NCBI GenBank assembly: GCA_023920165.1
Contig: CP089278.1
Span: 1,426,001-1,490,000 of the forward strand
Origin: Curvularia clavata
Taxonomy: Eukaryota
DNA length: 64,000 nucleotides
Direction of reading: 5' to 3'
The notes beneath the pieces were generated by a model. It was not told where the DNA came from, searched no databases, and saw only the letters and a list, made by a program, of their open reading frames with translations. Both the position numbers and the translations under genes were made by a program. Positions 3,637-10,236 of this stretch are shown piece after piece; positions within the stretch are counted from its first letter, which is position 1, and each line of letters begins with the position of its first letter.

Positions 3637-5207
3637 CCATTACCGCGACATGCCACCCCCCCGGCCGACACTGCACTCACAAAGACAGCCAGCCAAATTG
3701 CATCGCGCGCACGGATTGAGTTCGACGGCAGCAAAGAAGCTTTTGGTATGCCGAAATGAGATTGCACCCCCCGCATGCACGTCGATCAGTCGTATCTCGT
3801 CTTGGTGTGGCGTCTGTCTGTAATGGCCCTGGCTGCCTCCCTGACTCTATCTAGCAAACACTAGCCGTCCGCATGCGCTGCCCCTCGACGGCGGCGACGA
3901 CGACGACGACATGACAGGCAGCCGTGCATGCAGTCAGCCCGCTTACCCACCCGTGACTGCTGGAACACATGTTGCCTGGAAGCAAAAGCAATCGTACGAC
4001 TTTTGCCAGCTGCCATGCGTCTGAAACCCCGCCGCGCTCAAGCGAAGCACGCTGCAGGGAGCCGCCCATGGCTCCTCCGCTATTCCGCTCCCATGGCCTC
4101 CGCCCTATCCCACGTCTGCTTGTTCGCCGCCTGCTATATCAGGGGTACCTGCAACCAGAAACCCACCATGGATGGACCTGCCTGGGCAATGTGTCCCCAT
4201 GGTACGTACCAGCGTCTTTCTTTTCTTCTTTCTCTTTTGCTGAGCCTGCACCGCCTAGGGATCCACGCCCACCATGCCAAAGACAAAGTGCGACAGGAAA
4301 CAACAAACACCCGTCCATACTCTAGTACCTGGTTTGGTGGCATCTTCCGTCTGATGGCCTTCCCGCCCAACACGACAAACTCTGGCGGCATTTGTCTACA
4401 TACGCCGACATATGCAGTCTCAACCTGAGGCACCATACCACCTCAGCGGCACCTATCTGTAATCCCCCCCGTCTAATAATATCCCGTGTGCCAAATTTAC
4501 CCACATACGAGGCCACATCACCGTGATTTTACTTGCACACGGGTCGGGACATTGCATTCCCACAGACAACTGCTTTGCACACATGTGGGCTTGCTGTCAC
4601 AGTTTTGGAATGGTTCAAAACCTACTCCAAATCTCTGGCCCATTGCAGTTTCGCATTCACAAGCGGCCAAGAACCCCGGTTCCGTCTCGGCATATACCGA
4701 CGGTATACCTCTTTGCAAACAAGATCGTGATGCTCTCTTTGCTCGTACTCAACTTTCGGTGCCAAGCAGCACATCAATAACGCCCTTGTCGGAGCTGTGA
4801 GATTAAGTGCGCCACACGTGCTGCCTCAACACGACTGCAAATTGCTTTGTCGACCCAAGAAATCGTACCCCTACTTCTACCCGCATCCTTTGTTGCTTTC
4901 GTGCATATCAAATTCCACGTTCAAATAATCTACCATGATCCTGGTATCCAGGAATGGGACCAATACCCGCACGGCGAGGCGCGATAGCTGAATAGATTAA
5001 TCCCCAGTTTTTGCAAAAAAGCAAAATGAACCCAAAATTCGTCGCCGAGGTCGGATGGCACAAGAGTTTCAGGCCTGGGTGTTTGCCAATGGCATCCGAG
5101 AGGGTCTGGTCGTAGACTGGTCATGATATTCCTTCTATGGGGATTGCAGACGCCGCTCTGTGCTGCCAGACTGTACAATATAATACACGTATAACTTTGC
5201 TCCCACC

Positions 5208-5706
5208 TCACATGGACACTCGTCCAGTACCACCACGTTCGATCTTGTTCAGTCGTCGTGCAGTCGCAATCTGTCGCCATTAGCAGGTTCCTCCACCACC
5301 CATGCTCCTCCTCTGGTAAACGCGGGACCACACGTACCTGTGTCCTTGTCCTTTGTCCGCGTGCTGGCAGACCCATTGCGTGTCTCCTTCCCCGATATGT
5401 GCCCATGTCTCGTAATCTCCGTATGTCGTCCTGAACTTGCCGCCGCAAGTCGTTCTCAATCTTCATGTTGGCCAATTCCGCCGTGAGATCCATGACGGTG
5501 GCATTCTTCAGACTGCCGACTTTGGCCCAAGGGTGGATGTGGAATTTTGCCATGATGCGCTGCGACACCGATGGGCCGATGCCGAAGAAAGATTCGAGAG
5601 ACCGCTTTACGAGCGTGGCTTCCGTGAAGCTGAAGCCATTGATGAACACCTGGTATAGATCAGCATTTGCAAACAGTCGCATTGAACAGAATCAAGCACC
5701 CACCAT
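5208..5706 (-). CDS. SWS2: Mitochondrial small-subunit ribosomal protein uS13m (3 exons: 5706-5704, 5649-5338, 5270-5208)
   Basis: S13 motifs FFGIG...IENDLRRQVQDDIRRLRDMGTYRGRRHAMGLPARGQRTRTQ. GT-AG introns restore M-VFING and RTRTQ-IATARRLN, ending at TGA. Confidence 0.92.
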
Positions 5707-5962: not shown

Positions 5963-6799
5963 ATGGCTTCTTTCCAGAGGGCCGTCATCTCGCTCTTGTT
6001 GATCCTCTCCATCACCTTCGTCTTCTTCGCCCAGACTTCTGAGGCTGCCAAGGGCCCCAAGGTCACCAGCAAGGTGTGTAATTCGAGCAAGAGCTGGTGA
6101 GCATGGCCCTGACAGATTGAACAGGTCTTCTTCGACATTGAACACGGCGATGAGAAGCTAGGTCGCATTGTCATCGGCCTGTACGGCAAGACCGTCCCCA
6201 AGACTGCTGAGAACTTCCGGTACGACATAAGACGAATAGTTTGCAACTCGGTATACTAAGGCAGGCGGCAGTGCTTTGGCTACTGGCGAAAAGGGCTTCG
6301 GTTATGAGGGCTCTACCTTCCACCGAGTTATCAAGGACTTTATGATCCAGGGTGGTAAGTGGACATTATACGCTCTCAAGTGTCTTCTGCATACTAACAG
6401 CAACATAGGCGACTTCACCAGGGGCGATGGCAAGTCTTTTTGGGGGCAAGAAATACACGTCAGGTATACTAACATACTCTAGGCACTGGTGGCAAGTCTA
6501 TCTACGGCGAAAAGTTCCCCGATGAGAACTTCAAGCTCAAGCACAGCCGCAAGGGTCTCCTCAGCATGGCCAACTCGGGCAAGGACACCAACGGAAGCCA
6601 GTTCTTCATCACCACCGTCGTCACCAGCTGGCTCGATGGCCGCCACGTCGTCTTCGGAGAGGTCCTTGAGGGCTACGATGTTGTCGAGAAGATCGAGAGT
6701 GTCCCCAAGAGCCCCGGAGACAAGCCAACCAAGACTGTCAAGATTGCCAAGAGCGGCGAGCTCGAGGTACCAGCGGAAGGTATTCACGCGGAACTCTAG
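5963..6799 (+). CDS. cypB: ER cyclophilin B (peptidyl-prolyl cis-trans isomerase), 208 aa; exons 5963-6073, 6125-6219, 6272-6354, 6409-6429, 6483-6799
   Basis: Signal peptide, [65 protein letters not shown] and a C-terminal HAEL (HDEL-like). The exons sum to 627 nt. Confidence 0.95.
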
Positions 6800-6876
6800 A
6801 CACCAGTATGCACGTCTTGCTATTGTGTCAATCCCCTTAGGTTGGAGAGCTGCTGATAGTGTGTTCGTTTTTCAAG

Positions 6877-7151
6877 ATTTATATGGCGCTGCTGAGCCCG
6901 CCATCGCCGGTGACAACCTCGATGTCACACCATCAAAACTCAGTGATGATGTTGCAAGCATCGCGATGCCTTCCAAGGCTTCTGGCGCCAACGCTAAGAT
7001 TGAGGGGCTGGCCTCTTCTGTTTCTGCTACGGGCTCCGCAGATGGCTTGTCCCTGGGCCAGAAGTTCTTCTTCATTGTCGTCATCGTCGCCGTTTGCGCA
7101 CTTTTCCTCAACTCCAGAAAGGGTGGGCTCAAGGAGAAAAGCATGGCTTAG
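6877..7151 (+). CDS. Putative alternative terminal exon of cypB encoding a Ser/Ala-rich stalk, a transmembrane helix and a short basic tail
   Basis: In frame with cypB if donor G|GTATTC (6780) joins acceptor TTCAAG| (6876); branch-like GCTGAT at 6852. Encodes ...QKFFFIVVIVAVCALFLNSRKGGLKEKSMA*. Confidence 0.65.
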
Positions 7152-8031
7152 GCTACCCCACAATATGCGAAACTTTGTTGTCTGGTTAGTTTGGTTGTGC
7201 TTGTATTGAGTGGTGCTTGCTATGCTACAAGATGGTTCCTGGCGTGTGAGTGACATTTGGTGGCAGGATCTCGCGTGCTGCTACATGAATGTGTCAAGTG
7301 TTTTTGATTGATTCCAGTTATATTCAAACTACTCGGGTTTCATGTGCAGAGGACGCGCTTGTTATGCACAGATACGCCCCTTGGCCGTCTGGCCAAACAG
7401 TGAATCTTGACTTTTGCGTACACATGTAGATTGAGTAAGCAAGGCAATACTGATAAGACTTTGCATATGGTTGTGAAGCAAATTCAACATGTGGCGAATA
7501 CTGCAGCGGGTGGCAAAAGCAAATAGGCGTGCATGCTGAAGCAGGCGGCCTCAATCACAACTCCAGCCGTCTAGTGTCAAGCCCAGAGCAAAGCACAATT
7601 GCTCGGGCAAGTCTTCCGCCATCTCTGTTGCCAGTAGTACGTATGCGCATGTCACTGTACGTCTGTGCATCGAAAAACAAGCATCCTGCATCGTAGGACA
7701 GCAGCTGTGACGTTCACCGCTCCGCACTCGCCACAGTGCTGAGAGGCTCTTGGGACGCTTGCGCACTAATCCCATCTCGGTCTAGCTGGAAAGGGTTCTC
7801 TCTGACGCTTTTTTAACTTAGCTGCCGCCTCCCTCCTCCCTCACCACCCACTCTCAAAACCTCCTGTGTGTATTACACAACCTCACCATCACATTTCCGT
7901 GTGAAGTCCTTTCCTTTGGCCTTCACGCTCATTTACTTGTCGTTTTTTTCTCAGGACAGAGGCGTTCCCTTCTTTCCTGACAGAACGAGGATCAGGCACC
8001 CGCCTGCGAGTTATCAGTTTCGTCACTTTGA

Positions 8032-10236
<2,205 letters not shown>

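Follow-up and report, generated by a model that had tools for sequence, protein, structure and literature searches.

Cyclophilin B of Curvularia clavata: a probable three-way 3' end choice between a soluble and a membrane-anchored isoform

The stretch of Curvularia clavata DNA analysed here (the window: 64,000 nucleotides of contig CP089278.1, positions 1,426,001 to 1,490,000, forward strand) carries cypB, the cyclophilin B gene of a Pleosporales-type ascomycete, and the 3' end of this gene is likely to offer a three-way choice that gives a soluble or a membrane-anchored PPIase. The proposed choice would operate as follows, with two weak donors competing for one branch point and one acceptor. 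When the last intron is retained, or when the donor at 6806 (donor 2) is used, translation would stop after HAEL and yield a soluble, luminal PPIase of 208 aa, which its C-terminal motif suggests would be kept in the ER through H/KDEL-receptor retrieval. When the weaker donor at 6780 (donor 1) is joined to the acceptor at 6876, the retrieval tag and the stop codon would be removed and the frame would continue into an acidic/Ser-rich stalk of about 60 aa, one transmembrane (TM) helix and the short basic tail KEKSMA. The 293-aa product would be a type-I membrane protein with its catalytic domain still in the lumen (predicted topology). The preliminary description of this locus had proposed that one gene makes both a luminal and a type-I membrane PPIase: the conservation of the extension and of donor 1, together with a donor-1 junction in a relative (locus L022), speak for this proposal, and the matching junction 6779^6877 (the caret marks the splice joint) was absent from the RNA contigs of C. 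clavata runs X1, X2 and X3.

The cypB gene model was solved from the sequence and comprises five exons on the + strand (Table 1), the last of which runs from 6483 to 6799 in the short form. The short product of 208 aa has a hydrophobic N-terminus, in which 19-residue Kyte-Doolittle windows exceeded 1.6 at starts 1-11 (hydropathy only), and ends with HAEL. The last exon alone (P0002) matched the Pro_isomerase family of Pfam (PF00160; E 2.5e-29, 103 bits, cut-off 21.7), as did a full-length relative, P0003 (E 1.7e-50); cypB therefore has the cyclophilin domain of the ER cyclophilin B group. For intron 4, GC..AG were the only workable boundaries, and this intron was skipped in the RNA contigs of X1 and X2. 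Intron 4 is missing from six genomic relatives (L005, L015, L016, L019, L024, L029) and so looks lineage-specific. Two neighbouring ORFs were read from their translations: the upstream, divergent neighbour (4930-5691, - strand) contains a ribosomal protein S13-like stretch, and the downstream neighbour (8032-10236, + strand), a long ORF resembling Ded1/DDX3, has DEAD-box helicase motifs and ends rich in Gly and Arg.

Table 1. Features of the cypB locus, in window coordinates. X1, X2 and X3 are the three RNA runs described in the text.
Feature	Position	Strand	Evidence or remark
cypB exon 1	5963..6073	+	start codon; hydrophobic N-terminus, putative signal sequence; an X1 RNA contig has junction 6071/6123 (GT..AG)
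cypB exon 2	6125..6219	+	junction 6218/6271 in contigs of X1 and X2
cypB exon 3	6272..6354	+	junction 6353/6408 in contigs of X1 and X2
cypB exon 4, 21-nt micro-exon	6409..6429	+	sole exon combination restoring a 17-residue stretch of the protein
cypB intron 4, GC-AG, donor GCAAGT	6430..6482	+	joint 6428/6482 in X1 and X2, with 4 ambiguous letters, fits 6430-6482
Last cyclophilin exon, part common to both isoforms	6483..6779	+	PF00160 match; RNA contigs span 6482-6805
Donor 1, AAG^GTATTC, within the Gly-Ile codons of GIHAEL	6780..6785	+	use would yield the membrane isoform; homologous junction in L022
Short-isoform-specific end, (G)IHAEL and stop TAG (6797-6799)	6780..6799	+	C-terminus of ER-retrieval type
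Donor 2, CCA^GTATGC, in the short-form 3' UTR	6806..6811	+	junction 6805^6877 in X1, X2 and X3
Intron block GGAGAGCTGCTGATA with putative branch point GCTGAT (6852-6857, A at 6856)	6844..6858	+	nearly invariant in Pleosporales-type loci; branch use predicted
Acceptor AAG common to both donors	6874..6876	+	joined to donor 2 in three runs
Extension exon, predicted luminal stalk	6877..7064	+	open frame, median dN/dS 0.27
Predicted transmembrane helix FFFIVVIVAVCALFL	7065..7109	+	hydropathy maximum 2.46
Predicted cytosolic tail NSRKGGLKEKSMA and stop (7149-7151)	7110..7151	+	sequence; tail residues conserved
3' UTR up to RNA contig ends	7152..7353	+	ends at 7341 (X1), 7351 (X2) and 7353 (X3)

All the sequence features named in the preliminary description (donors at 6780 and 6806, GCTGAT at 6852, acceptor at 6876, 882 nt/293 aa) were recomputed and found in place. 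Joining 6779 to 6877 gives a CDS of 882 nt for 293 aa, ending with NSRKGGLKEKSMA. As had also been described, use of the donor at 6806 or the absence of splicing keeps the 208-aa protein: both frames end at HAEL, a C-terminal tetrapeptide of the H/KDEL retrieval type by its motif. The 5' splice consensus is GTRNGT. Donor 1 (GTATTC) is without the G at +5, yet has a good exon side (AAG^), and so fits a minor or regulated site. Donor 2 (GTATGC) begins at the seventh base past the stop TAG.

The in-frame extension (P0001) is 91 residues long and consists of a 60-aa stalk, the hydrophobic segment FFFIVVIVAVCALFL and the tail NSRKGGLKEKSMA, of which the last residues are KEKSMA. The stalk contains 12 Ala, 10 Ser and 6 Asp, and is laid out as a conserved N-terminal block (DLYGAAEPA..GDNLDVT), a variable Ser/Ala/Asp linker and a conserved DGLSLGQK. 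A scan of the long form with 19-residue Kyte-Doolittle windows exceeded 1.6 in two places only, the N-terminus (starts 1-11) and starts 257-269; the second, with the maximum of 2.46 at 262, covers FFFIVVIVAVCALFL. The extension gave no family match in Pfam. A dilysine COPI signal would place Lys at -3 and at -4 or -5, and the lysines of KEKSMA are at -4 and -6; the earlier statement that this tail falls outside the canonical KKxx/KxKxx signals was thus correct. Two other routes to the extension were considered. Stop-codon read-through and donor 2 were ruled out: after joining at 6805^6877 the ORF still stops at HAEL, and the extension lies in another frame. A separate small gene is unlikely, since relatives lack the Met found at residue 31 of P0001 (no conserved start) and both parts are fused in L022.

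RNA of C. clavata itself was available as assembled contigs of three public runs (X1, X2 and X3, from three studies), more than 99% identical to the window; a fourth run, X4, gave no contig. The upstream introns were removed in these contigs (all four in X1, three in X2), and the material of X1 and X2 is therefore RNA. One upstream contig was continuous from 6482 to 6805. At the 3' end exactly two forms were assembled per run, both of which encode the HAEL protein. The intron-retained form was represented by a 131-nt piece through 6776-6906 (depth 8.3, 9.9 and 10.7 in X1, X2 and X3, respectively), and the donor-2 form by a 60-nt piece joining 6805^6877, in which 71 nt with GT..AG boundaries were skipped (depth 6.4, 7 and 5.5, respectively). 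All these forms appear to end at the same place, near 7341-7353; in the X3 contig, adapter-like letters follow 7353.

The preliminary description had named the junctions 6779^6877 and 6805^6877 as the ones to compare in RNA. The second was present in all three runs; the first was not found in the RNA contigs of X1, X2 and X3, an assembled form of data from which rare variants are dropped. The RNA contigs of this one organism thus hold intron retention and 6805^6877 only. The absence of 6779^6877 bounds the use of donor 1 as low in these samples, in which the membrane isoform is at best minor, and is no proof of absence. Judging from the sequence features and their conservation, C. clavata probably makes the long mRNA, as a minor or condition-dependent form.

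Relatives were scanned in metagenome contigs, which gave 165 pattern matches, among them 33 loci that encode the extension. Upstream introns were missing from 14 of these 33 loci, which are cDNA-like; several of the 14 contigs are near-identical, and they represent fewer than 14 independent organisms. The terminal intron was retained in nine of them (L004, L008, L009, L011-L014, L027 and L031), four carried a junction of the donor-2 type (L001, L002, L010 and L018) and one, L022, carried the donor-1 junction. L022 is intron-free at every position, and its ...GCGGAAG is joined directly to ATAAATACGG at the homologous donor-1 site. It reads as a single ORF of 292 aa (P0219) with a putative signal sequence, cyclophilin domain, stalk, TM segment and the end ...GKSKSMA; the exact protein was absent from the protein collection searched. 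Because all introns are missing, L022 appears to be derived from RNA, and would place the alternative junction in the RNA of a relative. A DNA origin would make L022 a processed copy of a donor-1-spliced mRNA.

Public protein models contain both forms. When the longer proteins were searched with the extension, 8 of 458 candidates matched, all with PF00160 and with the extension in frame (259-301 aa). These were Pleosporales proteins annotated as PPIase B or hypothetical (Stemphylium, Bipolaris, Alternaria, Bimuria, Amniculicola, Periconia and Cucurbitaria), with the junction ...E^D(L/T)YG... in all 8; every one is an NCBI genome annotation, and the long models may be gene-finder choices made without RNA support. 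Forms of 208 aa with an HxEL end were numerous in the search with the last exon, both in named fungi of the same genera (Pyrenophora, Exserohilum, Bipolaris maydis, Alternaria incomplexa) and among many transcript-sized JGI and Logan contigs. In one 90% cluster, Alternaria alternata was annotated with 208 aa and with 298 aa in different assemblies.

Outside the Pleosporales, models of Podospora fimiseda (272 aa) and Cladorrhinum (280 aa) have a different stalk-TM-tail after ...PDEG, and a related Parathielavia model ends with EGIHVEL at 207 aa. A search with the Podospora extension matched only 2 proteins, so extensions of this type evolve too fast to be traced by protein search. A 236-aa model from the lichen fungus Pycnora matched the extension profile, which was built from nine extensions. 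The same profile recovered 87 clusters at 50% identity, nearly all of which were short stand-alone ORF calls. These clusters share GLSxxQK, a hydrophobic run of at least 12 residues is present in 75 of them, and the commonest last four residues were KSMA (33 clusters) and KSLA (13), followed by close variants. K86, K88, M90 and A91 of the extension were invariant in nine sequences. The consensus tail of the 87 clusters has K at -4, then S, M/L and A, and many relatives are without a basic residue at -6 (e.g. YEKSMA, GEKSLA). Among the same clusters (P0132-P0218), minority endings were RFPV/RFPA, and one sub-family has ...GRHGAY(E/Q)K... before the end. We know of no sorting motif of the K-S-(M/L)-A form. 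The localisation of either protein, a regulation of the choice and a sorting role for the K-S-(M/L)-A end are putative.

The nucleotide sequences of the extension were compared in 13 distinct sequences, the window included. No stops were found, all the indels were in frame, and conserved blocks alternated with a variable linker. Pairwise Nei-Gojobori dN/dS ranged from 0.12 to 0.62 with a median of 0.27 (51 unsaturated of 78 pairs); examples are 0.19 at dS 0.84 for the window and L001, and 0.16 at dS 0.60 for L003 and L005. The extension is thus under purifying selection, and because its frame is open and constrained in this way in relatives, it is more than a chance ORF. The frame, TM helix, tail and dN/dS below 1 that the preliminary description had singled out for checking were all conserved, and the stops or frameshifts in relatives that it had said would count against its reading were seen in none of the 13.

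Donor 1 was examined at the codon level in 17 distinct sequences and 56 codons, which are related and non-independent, with other columns of the same alignment as the control. The Glu codon before donor 1 was GAA in 17/17, compared with 12/64 for four other conserved Glu columns, and the donor-1 Gly codon was GGT in 16/16, compared with 2/85 for five other conserved Gly columns. At synonymous sites, donor 1 is therefore conserved beyond what the protein requires. In L019 the donor has moved one codon later (GTGAGC) with the phase unchanged. The Glu codon inside HAEL (6795 region) was GAA in 15 of 16 sequences, GAG being dominant elsewhere, and this bias hints at an extra RNA-level constraint just 3' of donor 1. 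Both donors had been put forward for a conservation check: donor 1 is conserved even synonymously, and donor 2 was found in the closest group only, to which the donor-2-like GTAYGC past the stop is confined. The more distant L016, L024, L026 and L029 have no donor-2-like site and retain donor 1, the branch block and the acceptor.

The terminal intron varies in sequence and length, except for the block GGAGAGCTGCTGATA and the acceptor, which is CAAG^AT in most relatives, TAAG^AT in L019 and GTAG^AA in L028 and L032. The block (15 nt, 6844-6858) is nearly invariant in L003-L031 and exceeds the needs of a branch-point consensus; a splicing factor might bind to it. A conserved RNA structure masking donor 1 was also considered and was dropped: the consensus fold of the donor-to-acceptor region of 11 sequences (-4.0 kcal/mol) had no convincing helix.

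Two loci of more distant relatives carry a divergent version of this arrangement. In L028 (547-1000) and L032 (2076-2520), the short form ends with GIRAEL, the first donor is G^GTATCA, a strong GTACGT donor lies 15 nt past the stop, the acceptor is TAG^AA and the extension ends with AGRHGAYQQGMA. Because L028 and L032 have their own donors, acceptor and extension, the three-way arrangement recurs with different sequences.

The short-form tags of the relatives were HAEL, HEEL, RAEL, HVEL or KDEL, and in the unspliced relatives the retained intron opened with xxEL-stop in every case. In L016 (1777-1842), the short form is longer and rebuilt, ending with the KDEL-type tag of ...GIQLENDKDEL, and donor 1 is unchanged (GAAGGTATTCA). 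This different, longer end argues that the tag of the short form is itself under selection.

Three other explanations of these observations were weighed. The region past the stop could be a mere 3' UTR with a UTR intron (6806-6876), the HAEL protein being the only product and the long protein a gene-finder artefact. The sole 3' end junction in the three RNA runs (6805^6877), the four relatives' contigs with a donor-2 type junction, the nine with a retained intron and the origin of all 8 long proteins in genome annotations agree with this explanation. We nevertheless consider it unlikely: a mere UTR would not account for a frame of 90 codons that stays open in 13 distinct sequences (in-frame indels only, dN/dS of about 0.27), for the preservation of a TM segment and of K-S-(M/L)-A endings in 87 clusters, for the fusion of both parts in one ORF in L022, or for relatives that retain the branch block, the acceptor and donor 1 in the absence of a donor-2-like site.

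The membrane-anchored protein could instead be the main product, and the HAEL form a by-product of the inefficient removal of a weak intron. The conservation of the extension and of donor 1 would fit, as would the organism of L022, for which the long form is the only one assembled, but unspliced and donor-2 mRNAs are the sole forms assembled in C. clavata and the majority in relatives. The constant xxEL-stop at the start of the retained intron and the rebuilt ...KDEL end of L016 point to selection on the short form. Moreover, Derkx and Madrid reportedly described A. niger CYPB in 2001 as an ER foldase with the retention signal HEEL. For these reasons this explanation appears quite improbable.

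It is very improbable that the three 3' end forms mainly tune mRNA stability or translation (through 3' UTR length, or an exon junction just past the stop) with the protein difference secondary: donor-2 splicing alters no codon and yet reaches a depth similar to that of retention in three runs, and it also occurs in several relatives, but donor 2 is not conserved beyond the closest group, the coding features of the extension are, and the selection on the extension would be left unexplained. A role in mRNA tuning could coexist with the proposed soluble/membrane switch.

Compared with known systems, the short form is like the ER-luminal cyclophilins (A. niger/A. nidulans CypB, S. cerevisiae Cpr5 and human PPIB) in its PF00160 domain, its xxEL tag and a putative signal sequence; unlike these, the cypB gene additionally has a conserved alternative C-terminus with a TM anchor. 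In immunoglobulin mu, a donor within the last soluble exon, upstream of the soluble tail and stop, is joined to the exon(s) for the TM segment and a short cytoplasmic tail. The likeness to cypB lies in the donor hidden before the soluble-specific tail and stop. The choice in mu competes with an upstream poly(A) site, whereas the cypB forms seem to share their 3' end and a second donor would compete for the same acceptor. Proteins with dilysine KKxx/KxKxx COPI signals share with the cypB long form a short cytosolic type-I tail with two lysines near the C-terminus, but in a different spacing.

In the part of the text of Pemberton (2006, PMC1618848) that was available, fungal cyclophilin B orthologues were grouped by ER targeting via an N-terminal signal peptide, and no mention of a TM-anchored alternative C-terminus of cyclophilin B was found. 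The same part of that text describes ScCpr4 as a secretory-pathway cyclophilin with a putative TM domain, and Cpr4/Cpr8 as separate genes restricted to Saccharomycotina. Yeast Cpr4 is like the cypB long form as a secretory-pathway cyclophilin with a putative TM segment, and Cpr4/Cpr8 are unlike cypB in being separate genes.

Closer in mechanism are the cases of fungal dual targeting (the cryptic PTS1 of glycolytic enzymes, Y. lipolytica MDH2, S. cerevisiae PTC7 and SKI7/HBS1), in which a targeting or anchoring element at the protein terminus is exchanged according to how an intron is used or whether it is retained, as proposed for cypB. According to the available parts of the respective papers, PTC7 gains a TM helix via intron retention (PMC7491326), and MDH2 and peroxisomal enzymes are dually targeted through alternative splicing (PMC3372373, PMC3798809). 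In contrast to these cases, cypB would swap an ER-retrieval tetrapeptide for a type-I anchor within the secretory pathway, and its TM form would arise by splicing, that of PTC7 by retention. No mention of cyclophilin, CPR or HDEL was found in the available parts of PMC7491326 or PMC3597508. A literature search returned no description of a soluble/membrane splice switch of cyclophilin B, an event that supplementary splicing catalogues (e.g. an Iso-Seq annotation) might list; two N. crassa papers give NCU01200 only as CypB/PPIase B. Both protein forms are already public as rival gene models, and what is new is their reading as two conserved isoforms of one gene, together with the conserved tail motif.

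A broader reading is possible, and we hold it tentatively, as doubtful. The switch may be an ancient, proteome-diversifying event common to at least Dothideomycetes, Sordariomycetes and Lecanoromycetes, by which one gene would supply a free luminal and a membrane-tethered foldase in a ratio set by two weak donors that compete for one acceptor. The (E)-K-S-(M/L)-A end would then be an undescribed cytosolic sorting signal, and budding yeasts may have replaced the switch by separate genes, Cpr5 versus Cpr4/Cpr8, as for SKI7/HBS1. If this reading is true, the switch would be among the few deeply conserved splicing events in fungi.

Conserved alternative splicing that alters the location of a protein is rare in fungi. 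In the cypB case, a single folding catalyst would exist as a free protein of the ER lumen and as a membrane-tethered one, the anchored form possibly acting beyond the ER because its retrieval tag is lost. The switch would account for the conflicting public annotations of one gene (208 aa versus about 295 aa), and the extension points to a conserved C-terminal motif without an assigned function. With two weak donors and one acceptor, cypB would be a simple system for splice-site competition in filamentous fungi.
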